From Deltaproteobacteria bacterium (GTDB taxonomy: Bacteria > Desulfobacterota > GWC2-55-46): 46,301 nucleotides of DNA. Positions within the stretch are counted from its first letter, which is position 1. The number at the start of each line of letters is the position of its first letter. The notes beneath the pieces were generated by a model. The model was not told the origin of the DNA and did not search any database. It was given only the letters and a program-made list of their open reading frames with translations. The position numbers and the translations under genes are program-made. This document shows, in pieces, positions 3,008 to 10,776 of this stretch. The stretch lies in the NCBI GenBank assembly GCA_038043305.1, contig JBBTCG010000024.1, positions 1 through 46,301 on the forward strand, given 5' to 3'.

Positions 3008-3038
3008 CAGAATAATTTTTTACCGCATGGAGGTCATT

Positions 3039-3806
3039 ATGAAGCGTTTGTTGCCATTGGCAATGCTGGTCGGAGTTGTTGTTTTGCCGTCAATCTCATT
3101 TGGGTATCCTAATGGGACGCCGATGTATGTAACGGATGCCGCGCCGTTTTGCGCCGCGTGTCATTCGGCTGTAAAGGCAACGTACATGTCTGAGATGCCG
3201 CAGGAGGCCGCAGTCAAGGAACTGCCTGAGAACAAGCATTACGGCATGGTAATGGCCCCCGGGCAAACGCCTTACGCGGAGCTGACCGAGGAGCAAAAGA
3301 AGAAGGTCCTTGACGACGCGAAGAAGATTGATTCCAACTCGTCCGTCGCCATAAACGCGCCTGCAAAGGTCAAGGCAGGCAAGGAGTTTAAGGTTATTGT
3401 CAAGGCAAAGGGCGGCAACGGTCCGGTTATAGGGATAATGCTTTTGGACAAGGCGTCAAGGTATCAGTCCCGCCCGATTGCGGCATCTGGTTTTTATATA
3501 ACCGGAGAGCCTGAGGTAAAAGGGCAGGACAATCAGATTCAAAAGACATGGCTTGACAGGCGTCAAGCTGGTATGAAGCGGAATCTCAACTACATTGTCG
3601 TTGAAAAGCAGAGGTTCGATATTGACAAGGGGGTCTGGCCGACCGCTGAGGTAACATACGCGCTTTTAGCGCCGATTGCGCCGGGCGCATACACGATTAC
3701 CGCCGCATTTTTGTACGGAACCGAGAACGTTGAAAAGGCCGGTTTCATGCAAAGACCGTCGGGCAGGATACTCTTTTCAGACGAGACGGCCATCATGGTG
3801 GAGTGA
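3039..3806 (+). CDS. Secreted hypothetical protein with a single c-type heme-binding motif (CxxCH)
   Basis: The signal-peptide-like N-terminus MKRLLPLAMLVGVVVLPSISFG is followed by FCAACHS (CAACH). The remainder is predicted beta-rich (KVKAGKEFKVIVKAKG..., YTITAAFLYG). GGAGG at 3029-3033 lies 5 nt before the ATG at 3039; the track start at 3027 is probably 4 codons too long. Confidence 0.6.
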   Translation: MKRLLPLAMLVGVVVLPSISFGYPNGTPMYVTDAAPFCAACHSAVKATYMSEMPQEAAVKELPENKHYGMVMAPGQTPYAELTEEQKKKVLDDAKKIDSNSSVAINAPAKVKAGKEFKVIVKAKGGNGPVIGIMLLDKASRYQSRPIAASGFYITGEPEVKGQDNQIQKTWLDRRQAGMKRNLNYIVVEKQRFDIDKGVWPTAEVTYALLAPIAPGAYTITAAFLYGTENVEKAGFMQRPSGRILFSDETAIMVE

Positions 3807-3867: not shown

Positions 3868-4041
3868 TTACGAAGACCGGTCAAGATTTTTCTGCATGTC
3901 CGTAAACATGTTGCCCTTGATGGTGGTCTTGTCCCCGCACTTGGGGCAGCTGACTATCGTGCCGTCCTTCATGTCCTTTGCCTTTTTGTCGAACTCGTTG
4001 GCGCACTTTGGGCAGGTGACGTTTATTACTATGTCCTCCAT
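3868..4041 (-). CDS. Small zinc-ribbon protein (57 aa, two CPKC knuckles)
   Basis: Hand translation of the minus strand gives MEDIVINVTCPKCANEFDKKAKDMKDGTIVSCPKCGDKTTIKGNMFTDMQKNLDRSS, then TAA. GGAGGAG lies 3-5 nt upstream of the ATG, and the gene starts 19 nt after the NYN gene stop. It is absent from the ORF track because it is shorter than 60 aa. Confidence 0.7.
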   Translation of the reverse strand: MEDIVINVTCPKCANEFDKKAKDMKDGTIVSCPKCGDKTTIKGNMFTDMQKNLDRSS

Positions 4042-4060
4042 CTTCTCCTCCGTTAATTGT

Positions 4061-4921
4061 TCAAGTTGATTCCTGCGTTGAGGAACGCGGCGGGTATACG
4101 CGGGATATGTTCGTGGCCTGCAAACCCTTATCGCCCTGAGTCAGGTCGAACTCGAAAATCATGTCCCTGCTCGGCAGTTGATTTCTGTCAACGGACGTCT
4201 CAAACGCCGAATCATGGGCGAATGCCGTGCCGTATGGAGACTCAGGCACGCGGGTGTCCGTGATCCAGAGCCCTGGGCCGATGCGCTTTAAGAAACGCAT
4301 GAAGCCGAAGTTTTTTGAGCGGTTGAAGGTGTAGCAGATACCCCTTGCGCGGCCTCCGGGCTCGCCCCATGCCTTTTTGATTTCAGCGCCCTCGATTATC
4401 GGCAGGGGCAGAAGGTGCGGGATAAGGTAGCCTGACATGAACAGGTCAACCTCGCGCTTCAAGTTCGACGACACGTTCTGAAAGGCCACTGCCTCCACCC
4501 TGCAACCCTTGTTCTGAAGGGCGCGCACTACTTGTATAAAGTCCCCGTCTCCGGTGGCCATGACGACCTTTTCAAGGTTCTCCGACTGCATGAGCGCGTC
4601 TACGGCCATGTCAAGGTCCGCGTTGGCCTTGCCGAAGCGGTTTCCGGTCTCGTCAATGTACCATGCGACGACCTTCTCGATGACCTTGTAGCCGAAGTCC
4701 CTTAGCGTGGAGTGGAAGTTAAATGTCCTGTCCCTGTAGTCGTGATCCGTGCGCGCCCTCTCCTCGTCGTAGGCGACGTAGGCGTTCAGGCGCACCGGCT
4801 CGCCGTTGTCCCTGCAGGCGAAGTCCCTCAGCATGTCAAACCTCATGCCGTAGCCGCCGTTTCGCGTGATGTTGGCAACGTCAATGTACAGACCGACTCT
4901 TTGAGATTTTTGTTTGGTCAT
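4061..4921 (-). CDS. NYN (LabA/DUF88-like, PIN-fold) ribonuclease domain fused to a C-terminal cold-shock/OB-like domain
   Basis: The NYN acidic motifs are GLYIDVANI, NADLDMAVDAL and MATGDGDFIQVVRALQNKGCRV. The C-terminus GICYTFNRSKNFGFMRF...AFAHDSAF...MIFEFDL...GLQATNI resembles a CSD with an insertion. The likely start is the ATG at 4921 (MTKQKSQRV...), which overlaps the ATPase TGA stop as ATGA. Confidence 0.75.
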   Translation of the reverse strand: MTKQKSQRVGLYIDVANITRNGGYGMRFDMLRDFACRDNGEPVRLNAYVAYDEERARTDHDYRDRTFNFHSTLRDFGYKVIEKVVAWYIDETGNRFGKANADLDMAVDALMQSENLEKVVMATGDGDFIQVVRALQNKGCRVEAVAFQNVSSNLKREVDLFMSGYLIPHLLPLPIIEGAEIKKAWGEPGGRARGICYTFNRSKNFGFMRFLKRIGPGLWITDTRVPESPYGTAFAHDSAFETSVDRNQLPSRDMIFEFDLTQGDKGLQATNISRVYPPRSSTQEST

Positions 4922-6117
4922 GGTTTTTTGATTGGGAACATACAACAATATAATTGCAACATCTTGCTGGTAAAAATATATTCTCCCATCTCCTCTCCTG
5001 ATCTCAAGACATTCAGCTTTTTCATGCGCTGTAAAAAGTTATTGAACTTCTTTTTTTCATCGGTGGACAAACCTTTCTCGACGGACGCTTTCTTAAAAGA
5101 CAAATCAAAAACTTTCTCGCCAAGCATTGTTAGAATTGAGTGATATGCAGGACTTCGCAGGGCTTTATAAATCTGTTGGTCAACGAACTTTCTTCCGATT
5201 TCCTTCACGGCCTGCACAACGGCCATAACGGCATCGTTCCTGTCTATTTTATTGTCTTTATCAAGCCAGAACGCTTGCTCGCCAATGACGTGCATGACCT
5301 TTGGAAGACCGGCTCCGTAGAGGCAAAAATATTCCATAGCCTTCATGTCAATTGTAATACCGACAGTGCCGAAGGCTTTATTAAAAAAATCCATCATCTC
5401 AACCTTATCCATTGGTTCAATATCAATGATCTTGAATATCCTGTCCATTGGCTCGTGGCACTGAATCATCTTGGCTCTGCGCTCCTCAACGCCGCATAAC
5501 ATAAGCAACAACGGCAGGGGGTCGTTAGACAGGGCATTTTCGTCTACAATACCTTTTATGAAATAGGCAAAGTCAGGATTTGCCGCGATCCCATTAAGCT
5601 CGTCAAAAATAAGCATAACGCCCTTAATCTTATCTTCCTTAAATCTTTCACATAGACCGCGCAAAAAGGGCAGATACCCATGGGCAATGCTTGGAGTGTC
5701 AGCCTTTAAGACCTCCATATTGATGGTCAGGCCAAATAGCGACTGTGTACCGATATATCTTGCAAATATATTCCTGATCTTTTCGGTAATCGTCGGCTCG
5801 TATGCCCGTGTATTGATGGCGGCTTCAAGGGTCTTAGCCGCCACATCTTCCACTGTCCTTGCGCCGCCAAGCTGAACATGTATCCCCAACAGATGGTGGT
5901 CTCTTTCAGCAACGACGCGCATATAACCGGCAAGAGAGCTTTTGCCTATGCCATATTCACCGGCTAAAAAAAGCGCCTGAGGTTTCCCAAGCTCCACCTG
6001 TTGGATCGCGCGCAGTATACTATTGACCGCCGTCTCTCTTCCGACAAATAAATCTATCTGCACAGGAGAGCCGGAATCAAACGGGCATCTTCCTTTATTG
6101 ATAACGTTATTATCCAT
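4918..6117 (-). CDS. P-loop ATPase of the ORC/Cdc6 - Arch_ATPase/AAA_16-like type with a probable C-terminal winged helix
   Basis: 399 aa. It has an FVGRE lead-in, Walker A LAGEYGIGKSS and Walker B VMLIFDELNG. The basic C-terminal ~90 aa is helix-rich. The ATG lies 9 nt after the gyrB stop, preceded by GAGAAGG. It is visibly AT-rich compared with its neighbours. Confidence 0.7.
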   Translation of the reverse strand: MDNNVINKGRCPFDSGSPVQIDLFVGRETAVNSILRAIQQVELGKPQALFLAGEYGIGKSSLAGYMRVVAERDHHLLGIHVQLGGARTVEDVAAKTLEAAINTRAYEPTITEKIRNIFARYIGTQSLFGLTINMEVLKADTPSIAHGYLPFLRGLCERFKEDKIKGVMLIFDELNGIAANPDFAYFIKGIVDENALSNDPLPLLLMLCGVEERRAKMIQCHEPMDRIFKIIDIEPMDKVEMMDFFNKAFGTVGITIDMKAMEYFCLYGAGLPKVMHVIGEQAFWLDKDNKIDRNDAVMAVVQAVKEIGRKFVDQQIYKALRSPAYHSILTMLGEKVFDLSFKKASVEKGLSTDEKKKFNNFLQRMKKLNVLRSGEEMGEYIFTSKMLQLYCCMFPIKKP

Positions 6118-6126
6118 TGCCTTCTC

Positions 6127-8601
<2,475 letters not shown>

Positions 8602-8765: not shown

Positions 8766-8842
8766 TGGGGTGGACGAGGGGTCTCGAACCCCCAGCCTCC
8801 GGAGTCACAGTCCAGCGCTCTAACCGTTGAGCTACGCCCACC
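8766..8842 (-). tRNA. tRNA-His (anticodon GTG), CCA encoded
   Basis: The reverse complement reads GGTGGGCGTAGCTCAACGGTTAGAGCGCTGGACTGTGACTCCGGAGGCTGGGGGTTCGAGACCCCTCGTCCACCCCA. It has the extra 5' G(-1) typical of tRNA-His, the anticodon loop CTGTGAC and a TTCGAGA T-loop. Confidence 0.93.
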
Positions 8843-8937
8843 ATTAAGGGTTTTCCGCAACACATCTTGTATCACAGGGGAAGGAAGGATGTCAATGAAA
8901 TAGGGCGTTCAGGTACGGACTTATCAGTCGGTTTTAT

Positions 8938-8973
8938 AAGCAAAAGGGGTCTGGCGAAATCGCCAAACCCCTT
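8938..8973 (-). terminator. Rho-independent terminator downstream of tRNA-Arg
   Basis: On the minus strand AAGGGGTTTGGCG-ATTT-CGCCAGACCCCTT forms a 13-bp stem with one mismatch. It is followed by TTTTGCTTAT. Confidence 0.65.
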
Positions 8974-8981
8974 GATTTAAT

Positions 8982-9058
8982 TGGTGCGCCCGACTGGATT
9001 CGAACCAGTGGCCTACTGCTTAGAAGGCAGTTGCTCTATCCGACTGAGCTACGGGCGC
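8982..9058 (-). tRNA. tRNA-Arg (anticodon TCT), CCA encoded
   Basis: The reverse complement reads GCGCCCGTAGCTCAGTCGGATAGAGCAACTGCCTTCTAAGCAGTAGGCCACTGGTTCGAATCCAGTCGGGCGCACCA. The anticodon stem-loop is ACTGC-CTTCTAA-GCAGT. Confidence 0.93.
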
Positions 9059-9077
9059 GTTGGCGGAAAAAAAGAGG

Positions 9078-9833
9078 TTATTTTTTTGAGAGATAGGCTT
9101 TTTTCAAATCTTCCGCGATATGTTCGAGGTCAGGATAGATATAGCTGTTGGTAATCCCAAATCCTTCGATTGTTTTGCGTATGCTATCTTTGCCTTCAGT
9201 TGTGATAATGATTTTTTTGCAAAATTCGTCATGTCCTTGCAACTCATTAATCGCCTCGTCGTTATTATGACATGTAAACCGCGACGATTGCACCAAATGC
9301 CTGATGTCAAAATGCGGAGGGAATACCGCTAAAATTTTGCCACGTGGTGGTTTGGGACTCATAGCCTTTACAATATCGTTTCGTACTCTTTGAGAAGCGC
9401 CTGAGAATACGACTTTTTGCCCGGTTTGGTCCTCGTTAAGTAGTACCGGGTTCATTACCCACAATGCGCCACCATCCGTAGCAGGCTCGTCTTTACAGGC
9501 GAAAAACAAGGCTATCAGCATCGAGCTTGTCCAATCAAACAGCCGCGTGGGCAACCCATAATGTTGCGCGAGAAAAAGCCATAACACTTCTTCATTGTAT
9601 TCAGGGACATTGTCGGCGCAAACCTTTGCGCGCAACTTAAATCCTTCCAACAAACTTGTTTCTGCTTTTTTGTGCCCTTCATTACGATAAAGCGTCGGCC
9701 TTAAGTCCCAACTCTCCTTGCCATGCCCCCTCCACCAGAGTTCGCTGGGCGCTTTTTCGAGGAAATCGATAATCGGAGTAACGGCATTATATAACTCAAT
9801 GAAGTTTTTAACCGTCGCGGGTTGTTCGTTCAT
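9078..9833 (-). CDS. FRG-domain protein (function unknown)
   Basis: 251 aa. LWWRGHGKESWDLRPTLYR is an (F/Y/W)RG motif, and LAQHYGLPTRLFDWTSSMLIALFFAC matches the FRG family core QHYGLPTRLLDWT. It is AT-rich compared with the window. Confidence 0.75.
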   Translation of the reverse strand: MNEQPATVKNFIELYNAVTPIIDFLEKAPSELWWRGHGKESWDLRPTLYRNEGHKKAETSLLEGFKLRAKVCADNVPEYNEEVLWLFLAQHYGLPTRLFDWTSSMLIALFFACKDEPATDGGALWVMNPVLLNEDQTGQKVVFSGASQRVRNDIVKAMSPKPPRGKILAVFPPHFDIRHLVQSSRFTCHNNDEAINELQGHDEFCKKIIITTEGKDSIRKTIEGFGITNSYIYPDLEHIAEDLKKAYLSKK

Positions 9834-9940
9834 AGTCCGATTACCGTGGTTCGCCGTTATATGACTGACGATACTCCTTGATTATGCCTTCAACTTTTTT
9901 ATGTAATTCACCGAAGTTGTTGATGGCGACAGTGTCCGTG

Positions 9941-10273
9941 TTATCCGCCATATACAACTTCACCCTCTTTGGCGTAGTCCGCGACAATCGAATCCTTGTT
10001 TTCGAGTTCCGCATCTGTTTTCGTAAGGATGTCGAAGGGCATCATGAATTTTTTAATGGCCGCGATCTCGGCCTCTTTGGTCATTTGTGCCCTTTCGAGC
10101 CGGTCTTTTCCATTGAAGTCGTCCGACACAATGATTATATCAATGTCGCTTTCCGGCGTAGACGCACCTTTCGCATGCGAGCCGAACAGGATGATCTTTG
10201 ACACGTTAATGCCTGCCTTTTCCAGCCGCTTTTCCAGAAAATTAACGGCTTCTATAATTCTGTCTTCAGCCAT
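9941..10273 (-). CDS. Minimal nucleotidyltransferase (MNT, pol-beta superfamily), putative antitoxin partner of the HEPN protein
   Basis: 110 aa. It carries the GS-x10-DxD signature LFGSHAKGASTPESDIDIIIVSDD. Its start overlaps the upstream HEPN gene by 22 nt. Confidence 0.8.
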   Translation of the reverse strand: MAEDRIIEAVNFLEKRLEKAGINVSKIILFGSHAKGASTPESDIDIIIVSDDFNGKDRLERAQMTKEAEIAAIKKFMMPFDILTKTDAELENKDSIVADYAKEGEVVYGG

Positions 10274-10632
10274 TGCAGCGTCTCCCCGCCCTTTTCAAGC
10301 ATCTCTTTGACCATGTCCTTGCGATAAAACCCGGCCATCTCTTGTATATCGTCAGGGTAGCGGGTTGGCACACTCAACCTGTTGAGATTAAAAAACCAAT
10401 CGGATAATCCGCTTGGAACTTCAAGTCCGATCTTTTCGGCTAAGAAGATAAGGTTATGGGACCTCGGCGGCATTATGTCGAGTTTTTTAGCGTACAGCCC
10501 CTTTAATGCCTTCTCAATAGAAAGATGACACATAAAAACGGCGTGTATATACCGTCCGTTTTCATAGAGCACTTGTGCCGTCTTTAGATCATAGTCCGCC
10601 TGCCTGAACCATTCCTCCGGTTTTTTTGTCAT
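10252..10632 (-). CDS. HEPN domain protein, putative toxin of a HEPN/MNT pair
   Basis: 126 aa. HLSIEKALKGLYAKK and LSVPTRYPDD are typical of the kanamycin-NT-C-terminal-like HEPN family. It lies immediately upstream of, and overlaps, the MNT gene. Confidence 0.75.
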   Translation of the reverse strand: MTKKPEEWFRQADYDLKTAQVLYENGRYIHAVFMCHLSIEKALKGLYAKKLDIMPPRSHNLIFLAEKIGLEVPSGLSDWFFNLNRLSVPTRYPDDIQEMAGFYRKDMVKEMLEKGGETLQWLKTEL

Positions 10633-10641
10633 GCTGCCTCT

Positions 10642-10672
10642 AAAAAATTGGTCATGGTAACAGGATTCGATA
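10642..10672 (-). other. Degenerate duplicate of the tRNA-Pro 3' end plus its flank (possible integration scar or tRNA fragment)
   Basis: AAAAAATTGGTCATGGTAACAGGATTCGATA aligns ungapped with GAAAAAATGGTCGGGGCGAGAGGATTCGAAC (10693-10723). 22 of 31 positions are identical, including TGGTC and AGGATTCGA. Confidence 0.4.
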
Positions 10673-10699
10673 TTGTTCAGTTATTGCAAACTGAAAAAA

Positions 10700-10776
10700 T
10701 GGTCGGGGCGAGAGGATTCGAACCTCCGGCCCTCTGCTCCCAAAGCAGATGCGCTGCCAGACTGCGCTACGCCCCG
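10700..10776 (-). tRNA. tRNA-Pro (anticodon TGG), CCA encoded
   Basis: The reverse complement reads CGGGGCGTAGCGCAGTCTGGCAGCGCATCTGCTTTGGGAGCAGAGGGCCGGAGGTTCGAATCCTCTCGCCCCGACCA. The anticodon stem-loop is TCTGC-TTTGGGA-GCAGA. Confidence 0.93.

Follow-up and report, generated by a model that had tools for sequence, protein, structure and literature searches.

The three genes that follow gyrB on the minus strand of contig JBBTCG010000024.1 (deltaproteobacterial assembly GCA_038043305.1; 46,301 nucleotides, referred to as the window, to which all coordinates apply) encode an AAA+ ATPase, an NYN nuclease fused to a cold-shock domain (NYN-CSD) and a small zinc ribbon. The initial annotation of this DNA took the triad for a single system with the logic of abortive infection or RNA surveillance. 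The analysis described here indicates that the locus is probably a composite rather than a system, and that its only unusual component is the ATPase, a horizontally acquired stand-alone gene that behaves as a swappable unit. The three genes co-occur only in three near-identical genomes, namely the window and its syntenic close relatives L001 and L013 (L-numbers are labels of compared loci), in which GyrB is 93–95% identical at the amino acid level to that of the window, with synonymous divergence (dS) of 0.22–0.35. The initial annotation had itself tied its case to recurrence of the genes elsewhere; outside these genomes, neither the triad nor the pair of ATPase and NYN genes was found in 80 ATPase loci and 80 NYN-CSD loci. 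Among the three genomes, the ATPase alleles have been exchanged independently of their neighbors, and the triad thus fails as a candidate defense system.

The packing of the genes is tight. The gyrB gene (6127–8595, minus strand, 822 amino acids, Pfam architecture taken from the L001 orthologue), which belongs to the backbone and precedes the insert, ends with TAA and is separated by 9 nucleotides (6118–6126, minus strand, GAGAAGGCA), which include the ribosome-binding site (RBS)-like sequence GAGAAGG, from the ATG at 6117 that opens the ATPase gene (4918–6117, minus strand, 399 amino acids). The ATPase TGA and the ATG of the NYN-CSD gene (4061–4921, minus strand, 286 amino acids) overlap as ATGA at 4921–4918, and 19 nucleotides containing GGAGGAG lie between the NYN stop (4061) and the zinc-ribbon gene (3868–4041, minus strand, 57 amino acids). 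A terminator scan yielded just chance matches within open reading frames (ORFs), 9 against 7.6 expected, and the two gaps and the 4-nucleotide overlap leave no space for a terminator; downstream of the zinc-ribbon gene, the predicted fold is no better than that of shuffled sequence (z = −0.39). The arrangement described in the initial annotation is thus accurate in its coordinates, ribosome-binding sites and absence of a terminator between gyrB and the triad, and co-transcription of the triad with gyrB is likely, as judged by spacing. By the same token, the ATPase, with 9 nucleotides upstream and the ATGA overlap downstream, would have to ride on gyrB transcription through read-through and would be translationally coupled to the NYN gene. 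Its GC content is 42–48%, compared with 53–59% in the flanks, which bears out the AT-richness noted in the initial annotation; the ATPase is indeed an accessory, foreign-looking gene.

The ATPase belongs to an uncharacterized family

The ATPase contains readily recognizable Walker A (GEYGIGKSS) and Walker B (LIFDELNG) motifs. A Pfam search identifies AAA_16 (35.4 bits, cut-off 32.6) and, over about 60 residues around the N-terminal P-loop only, BrxC_BrxD (26.6 bits, cut-off 22.2); the match to nSTAND1, also limited to the P-loop region, is below threshold (20.4 bits, cut-off 27.1). No NCBIfam or PADLOC profile matches above threshold. The profile for PF01637 (ATPase_2) does not match the window protein at E ≤ 1, and weak matches are seen in some homologues and in ORF7 of the virus MSTV1 (28.4 bits, cut-off 33.2). 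Hence the expectation of a PF01637/PF13191-type domain is borne out for AAA_16 and not for PF01637.

The structure was modeled with AlphaFold2 from a 37-sequence alignment (A1), at a predicted local distance difference test score (pLDDT) of 83.5, and consists of an AAA+ core with a C-terminal winged helix. The best match of this model in a Foldseek search of the Protein Data Bank (PDB) is 2qen, PABY2304 from Pyrococcus abyssi (E = 1.4e-9; template modeling (TM) scores TMq 0.60 and TMt 0.67), followed by archaeal Orc1/Cdc6 and then by RuvB, clamp loaders and NB-ARC domains. The Orc/Cdc6 structures retrieved (1w5s, 2qby, 1fnn and 2v1u) have E-values of about 1e-8 and TM-scores of 0.46–0.54. A profile search of the PDB returns 2fna with E = 0.096, over the C-terminal half. 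Membership in the Orc1/Cdc6 family itself is not supported by sequence: TIGR02928 gives 16.1 bits against a cut-off of 181.3, over residues 20–75 only, and Pfam detects no Cdc6_C domain. The same is true of BrxD, since NF033438 (BREX_BrxD) gives 13 bits against a cut-off of 350 and the PADLOC BrxD model 13.7 bits, with about 50–60 P-loop residues aligned. Thus, the description of the protein as an ORC/Cdc6-like ATPase stands at the level of the fold and falls for sequence membership in Orc1/Cdc6, as it does in PF01637 and BrxD.

The family is sharply defined. At E ≤ 1e-30, it comprises 292 clusters at 50% identity, nearly all of 395–420 amino acids and without fused domains, and the invariant motifs are KGxSPFYPGQPVP..F.GR at the N-terminus and FNNFLQRMKKL..L.SG..GEY at the C-terminus. 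Given this fixed length and the AlphaFold2 model, there is no STAND/Avs-type sensor repeat or effector domain in the family. These proteins accordingly represent an uncharacterized family within the AAA_16/archaeal Walker ATPase/Orc-like superfamily. Literature searches for DUF2791, PABY2304 and single-gene AAA_16 defense retrieved nothing relevant, and no description of the genomic behavior of the family was found.

The ATPase is scattered across phyla and inserted into unrelated operons

The homologues, which are 47–70% identical to the window protein, all come from metagenome-assembled genomes (MAGs) assigned to Nitrospirota, Omnitrophota, Elusimicrobiota, Planctomycetota, Zixibacteria, Spirochaetota, Acidobacteriota, Verrucomicrobiota, Bacteroidota, Proteobacteria and others. 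Among 185,579 species, each represented by one genome, at least 157 loci confirmed by the family pattern show a patchy distribution and mutually unrelated contexts, and the nearest relatives cross phylum labels at 77–88% identity. The neighborhoods were analyzed in a sample of 80 genome loci from more than 20 phyla, about 75 of which are distinct. Besides the window, the genes for NYN, gyrB and the zinc ribbon adjoin the ATPase only in L001 and L013. When the eight nearest neighbors of each locus were clustered, no family was present in more than 5 of the ~75 distinct loci, and the families common to several loci reflect local synteny; the 120 immediate neighbors match 154 Pfam families, none of which is counted more than 4 times.

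Most of the loci have housekeeping neighbors. The ATPase gene is located, for example, between yggS and proC, with an ATGA overlap, in a yggS-proC-yggT-divIVA cluster (L009:5276–7985, and L036), between mcsB and clpC (L016:1303–6013), between bamA and skp (L026), after uvrA (L027) and after gcvP (L043). It stands between gyrA and gatB in a Rickettsiales MAG (L046:673–6190) and precedes gyrA in a gammaproteobacterial MAG (L059:145–2574). Suspected gyrA neighbors in L016 and L026 proved to be ClpC and BamA, so that true gyrA adjacency is limited to L046 and L059. With the window clade (4918–8595), the ATPase adjoins gyrase genes in three unrelated lineages, compared with a chance expectation of about 0.1–0.2 in what is a post hoc comparison. 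Four loci have modification-based defense genes as neighbors, an apparent enrichment that is likewise post hoc. The ATPase is placed between the Type III restriction-modification (R-M) genes Mod and Res, with overlapping stops and starts (L065:2–6040), lies directly upstream of a Type III cluster of Mod, HEPN/nucleotidyltransferase and Res genes (L011:6001–13189), overlaps a downstream Res-like helicase gene (L062:31–3386) and is found between HmaB and HmaC (L064:3–9123). The possibility that the last of these is itself HmaC was ruled out by a separate HmaC of 1095 amino acids encoded downstream. No BREX components (PglX, PglZ, BrxA/B/C/L) are present in the window locus or in the family-wide tally of neighbors.

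The ATPase gene has a lower GC content than its flanks in 73 of 77 loci (mean difference −7.9 points). At 4-fold degenerate sites, GC is 0.52–0.60 in the ATPase versus 0.70–0.78 in the flanks, so that amino acid composition is not the sole cause of the low GC content. No matches to the family were detected in plasmid and viral-contig collections, and no conserved DNA motifs, repeats or att-like sites were seen at the borders of the gene.

In principle, the ATPase could be a selfish, gene-sized element that persists by insertion into operons that are essential or well expressed (downstream of gyrB or gyrA, between mcsB and clpC, yggS and proC, or Mod and Res) without benefit to the host. The insertion sites within conserved operons, the lack of a conserved partner and the patchy distribution across phyla are all compatible with this explanation, as are the co-directional neighbors at no more than 100 nucleotides on both sides in 34 of 65 loci and the 11 loci in which the ATPase shares a stop/start overlap with the downstream gene. 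We nevertheless consider it improbable. Purifying selection is strong over the whole protein (the ratio of nonsynonymous to synonymous divergence, dN/dS, is 0.13–0.15, and mean column identity in the family alignment is 72% across phyla), which argues for a selected biochemical activity; furthermore, nothing was found that could mediate mobility, be it a nuclease, integrase or transposase domain or terminal repeats, and copies on plasmids or viral contigs are missing from the collections searched.

Two loci with conflicting taxonomic labels may be mentioned here. The ATPases of L049 (labeled KSB1) and L050 (labeled Cytophagia) are 82% identical and have the same neighbors, a 3-hydroxyanthranilate dioxygenase and a Peptidase_S9 protein (86–88% amino acid identity), which suggests that the contig was mis-binned or mislabeled or, alternatively, that the whole segment was transferred recently.

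The NYN-CSD protein and the zinc ribbon have histories of their own

The product of the second gene contains a NYN domain (PF01936, 74.2 bits, cut-off 24.2, E = 2e-20) with the acidic motifs IDVAN, DLDMAVD and GDGDF; residues D14, D102, D104, D108, D125 and D127 are strictly conserved among 30 orthologues. The best fold match of the N-terminal half is the LabA-like protein 2qip (TMt 0.70). The proposed fusion to a cold-shock-like oligonucleotide-binding (OB) fold is supported mainly by the structural model. In the window protein, PF00313 remains below threshold (22.1 bits, cut-off 27), several orthologues have precomputed matches to it, and the C-terminal domain of the AlphaFold2 model aligns with CspA/CspB at TMt 0.72–0.79. 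The orthologues begin at the same MTKQK, which identifies the ATG at 4921, rather than the upstream TTG at 4948, as the real start.

Homologues of NYN-CSD, 65–86% identical, come almost entirely from Deltaproteobacteria/Thermodesulfobacteriota, and neither the ATPase nor the zinc ribbon is encoded in any of the 80 metagenome loci sampled. Where enough upstream sequence is available, gyrB is located just upstream of orthologues that are at least 72% identical, with a spacer of 7–314 nucleotides (within 200 nucleotides in 14 of 16 cases and within 320 in the other two); orthologues of 63% identity or less have other housekeeping neighbors in place of gyrB, with BamA-like and IspG genes upstream and Ppx/GppA and aldolase genes downstream. 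The empty site in L004 consists of the gyrB TAA, an 18-nucleotide spacer and the NYN ATG, and no ATPase remnants were found in the gyrB–NYN spacers of the relatives. An 85% identical orthologue in L173 is encoded away from gyrB, so that the linkage is common but not fixed. Strong intrinsic-terminator hairpins directly follow gyrB in L093 (663–976) and L100 (4862–5000), both of which lack the ATPase; gyrB and NYN-CSD are thus separate transcription units there, and the two are paired by position and do not form an obligatory operon. NYN-CSD is accordingly a highly conserved gene that is inherited vertically in this deltaproteobacterial lineage, and its product constitutes an unstudied, new subfamily within a known family of nucleases. 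It most likely acts as a housekeeping endoribonuclease. No relevant literature on bacterial NYN-CSD fusions was found, and functional studies of bacterial NYN proteins in general are lacking (PMC5499597).

The 57-residue product of the third gene contains the pattern CPKC-x18-CPKC, which corresponds to a generic two-knuckle zinc ribbon. That this small ORF is a real gene, as the initial annotation had it, is indicated by a good RBS and by purifying selection (dN/dS 0.04–0.07): the protein differs by 2 amino acids among the three genomes, and its synonymous divergence equals that of the backbone. In a database of 5.8 billion proteins, it is represented by two near-identical clusters only, and no homologues were detected outside the window clade; a tblastn search and a scan for ORFs with the CxxC…CxxC pattern found none in 78 NYN loci and about 75 ATPase loci. 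Matches to known small zinc ribbons are all sub-threshold: YnfU (NF038384), 30.2 bits against a cut-off of 36; ECs_2282 (NF047912), 27 bits against 37; the Lar-like phrog_6422, 1.6e-5; and DUF7836. The zinc ribbon therefore appears to be a separate, clade-specific small gene that evolves with the backbone. Convergent with it, at a distance of 61 nucleotides, is a gene (3027–3806, plus strand) for a 259-amino-acid protein that has an N-terminal signal-like segment, no Pfam match and 89–90% amino acid identity in L001 and L013; no convincing terminator was found between the two.

A combination of a STAND-like ATPase with a nuclease is a frequent logic of defense systems, and this counts for the proposal that the ATPase serves as a sensor, NYN-CSD as an RNase effector and the zinc ribbon as an adaptor of one abortive-infection or RNA-surveillance system co-transcribed with gyrB. 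So do the tight packing with its ATGA overlap, the confinement of the joint presence of ATPase and zinc ribbon to the triad clade, and some of the matches returned by PADLOC (v2.0), in particular that to a generic NYN model (2.4e-9) and the weak one of the zinc ribbon to PDC-M14A (1.9e-5). However, PADLOC gave no system-level match, the rest of its output being partial hits to SspC (7.6e-5) and SngB, and across PADLOC, NCBIfam and PHROGs the three proteins were assigned to no system and to no named family other than generic domains; the ATPase has a minimal architecture of AAA+ and winged helix-turn-helix (wHTH) domains and no sensor repeat domain; and NYN-CSD is conserved and vertically inherited without these partners in hundreds of loci. 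Together with the restriction of the triad to three near-identical genomes and the independent exchange of ATPase alleles next to NYN and zinc-ribbon genes that stay 94–98% identical, these observations make a single system highly unlikely.

The ATPase gene is a hyper-divergent cassette

The exchange of alleles was examined by comparing the window with L001 and L013, using six backbone genes (gyrB, NYN, zinc ribbon, the gene for the 259-amino-acid protein, the PAS-domain histidine kinase and RadC) as a reference. The backbone genes have dS of 0.22–0.62 and encode proteins with 80–98% amino acid identity; for the ATPase, the respective values are 1.05–1.60 and 70–77%, and dN/dS of 0.13–0.15 implies that the protein is functional. 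At 4-fold sites of conserved codons, the difference is 0.39–0.46 in the ATPase versus 0.11–0.32 in the backbone. In 50-nucleotide windows, nucleotide identity is 0.92–1.0 until the last ~25 nucleotides of gyrB, falls to about 0.4–0.85 over the ATPase and returns to 0.94–1.0 from the first NYN codon, so that the hyper-divergent cassette spans 4916–6150 (minus strand), with sharp boundaries at the ends of the ATPase ORF. The topology of the ATPase, ((L001,L013),window), conflicts with that of gyrB, the histidine kinase and RadC, ((window,L001),L013).

A second, independent case involves two deltaproteobacterial MAGs, L070 (5890–7290) and L088. Their ATPases are 67% identical at the amino acid level with saturated dS, between flanks that are 92–100% identical at the nucleotide level (dS 0.05–0.24); the divergent tract extends from about 100 nucleotides upstream of the ORF to about 40 nucleotides inside the downstream gene. 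The nearest relatives of the two alleles are found in other genomes, L073 and L086. The pair L049/L050 is a milder case of ATPase divergence.

We take this divergence as pointing to in-situ allele replacement, or to a long-kept polymorphism shuffled by recombination, rather than to local acceleration of the substitution rate. The alternative, that the common ancestor of the three genomes already had the ATPase and that this gene has merely evolved faster through relaxed constraint or in a local mutation hotspot, would accord with the mutual proximity of the three alleles (70–77% identity against 64% or less to all others) and with their identical position, but it deserves very little credence given a synonymous divergence 2.5–4.5 times that of the six flanking genes at a still low dN/dS, boundaries that coincide with the ORF ends, the conflicting topologies, the different genomes in which the L070 and L088 alleles have their nearest relatives, and a back-of-envelope rate argument against amelioration as the source of the high dS, since this process would raise the synonymous rate only about 1.2-fold.

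Origin and possible role of the ATPase

Under the composite reading, the succession of gyrB and NYN-CSD would be an ancient arrangement in this deltaproteobacterial lineage. In a recent ancestor of the three known genomes, a single foreign gene encoding an AAA+/winged-helix ATPase of about 400 amino acids would have been inserted exactly into the short gyrB–NYN spacer. The ATPase would act alone, independently of NYN and the zinc ribbon, most likely as an ATP-dependent DNA-binding switch that oligomerizes in the manner of Orc1/Cdc6 and the archaeal Walker ATPases. In NYN-CSD, as its domain composition suggests, single-stranded RNA would be captured by the cold-shock OB fold and delivered to the NYN/PIN-like, Mg-dependent active site.

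Several observations weigh against this scenario or narrow it. The taxon labels come from MAG records, in which binning errors are possible. The low GC content is due in part to a protein rich in Lys, Asn, Ile and Phe, and the GC content of the ATPase tracks that of the host (r = 0.83), which implies that many copies are long-resident. Mobility machinery, repeats or flanking motifs that might account for insertion were not found. In several lineages, among them the Nitrospirae loci L015/L023/L055 and L031/L041, the ATPase is conserved as well as or better than its flanks, and turnover of the cassette is thus lineage-dependent rather than universal. As to the triad itself, the ATGA overlap implies stoichiometric co-expression of the ATPase with NYN, the zinc ribbon first appears on the branch on which the ATPase does, and since the triad is present in three genomes only, a newly formed partnership in this clade is compatible with the co-occurrence statistics. 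Finally, the function assigned to the ATPase, which draws on fold and context, is put forward with low confidence.

With similarly low confidence, a role of the ATPase in genetic conflict (defense, exclusion or regulation) rather than in core metabolism can be proposed, on account of its patchy horizontal spread, the Type III R-M and Hma operons in which it is occasionally found and the in-situ replacement of its alleles. A bolder version, which we regard as speculative and rather unlikely, is that the entire family is a hitherto unrecognized kind of single-gene conflict element, the size of one ORF, that has entered host operons across more than 20 phyla and borrows their transcription and often their translational coupling, its deeply diverged alleles being maintained and swapped in situ among genomes that are otherwise nearly identical. 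The alleles may then carry the signature of balanced polymorphism that is typical of immunity and exclusion genes, with no recognizable effector, partner or mobility machinery. If frequency-dependent selection indeed operates, the ATPase would be a new participant, consisting of a single gene, in genetic conflict.

The interest of the locus accordingly shifts from the three-gene hypothesis, for which construct work can be spared, to the behavior of the ATPase cassette. The latter combines tight splicing into operons with in-situ allele replacement in two independent lineages, in a sharply defined and uncharacterized family of stand-alone Orc/Cdc6-like ATPases from uncultured bacteria with one viral relative. 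Independently, the NYN-cold-shock fusion offers Desulfobacterota-like lineages a candidate RNase that is conserved and unstudied, and for which recruitment of RNA to the nuclease by the OB fold is a clear mechanistic prediction.

Upstream of gyrB, a low-GC islet (43–48%; 8766–10776, minus strand) lies between tRNA genes, in the order tRNA-His, tRNA-Arg(tct), FRG-domain protein (9078–9833), nucleotidyltransferase/HEPN pair and tRNA-Pro. The two genes of the pair (9941–10273 and 10252–10632) overlap and resemble a toxin-antitoxin module.

Comparison with known systems

The closest structural counterpart of the window ATPase, PABY2304 from P. abyssi (PF01637, "Arch_ATPase"), resembles it in size and in the succession of a P-loop AAA+ core, a helical lid and a C-terminal winged helix, and its function is likewise uncharacterized. 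Nevertheless, the two proteins share only 17% sequence identity, the window ATPase lacks a PF01637 match at E ≤ 1 and has terminal motifs of its own, and its family, unlike the archaeal PABY2304, is bacterial and horizontally scattered. With the archaeal and eukaryotic Orc1/Cdc6 initiators, the ATPase shares the AAA+ and winged-helix fold and probably ATP-dependent DNA binding; it differs from them in having no link to a replication origin and in its accessory character and patchy, non-universal distribution.

Among the relatives found, ORF7 of Methanobrevibacter smithii tailed virus 1 (MSTV1, PP537965; L177:3990–5213) is the only one that has been annotated or discussed. This homologue is full-length, with 28% identity across 97% of the query (E = 2e-43; hhalign probability, 100%), and shares both terminal motifs with the window ATPase. 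Its gene belongs to an archaeal virus and adjoins those for a wHTH repressor and an integrase, whereas the window gene is part of an operon in a bacterial chromosome. ORF7 has been called Orc1/Cdc6 and, on the basis of transcriptomes only and of an analogy with the virus SNJ2, hypothesized to activate the switch between lysogeny and lysis (PMC11375127). In Pfam, it matches only AAA_16 and ATPase_2 and none of the Cdc6 domains, and this "putative ORC1/Cdc6" is a full-length member of the window ATPase family rather than a canonical Orc1/Cdc6.

The similarity to BrxD/BrxC of BREX (PF10923) is a match of the P-loop region, which is reflected in the NCBI name of some family members, "BREX system ATP-binding domain-containing protein"; the alignment covers only about 60 residues, and there are no BREX genes nearby. 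As for modification-based defense ATPases more generally, a few members of the window family are encoded inside Type III R-M or Hma operons. The 57-amino-acid protein resembles small prophage-type zinc ribbons (YnfU, ECs_2282, Lar-like, DUF7836) in its two CxxC knuckles, its length within their range of 50–60 amino acids and its weak profile matches, but all these matches are below family cut-offs, and its homologues are confined to the window clade.

NYN-CSD shares both domain and fold with the LabA-like NYN nucleases (COG1432; 2qip) and, unlike other members of this group, shows a linkage to gyrB that is specific to its lineage. A parallel layout, with a nuclease followed by a C-terminal RNA-binding module, is found in the NYN-OST-HTH proteins, which have been predicted to function as a stand-alone unit of RNA degradation (PMC5499597); in the window protein, the place of OST-HTH is taken by the cold-shock OB fold.

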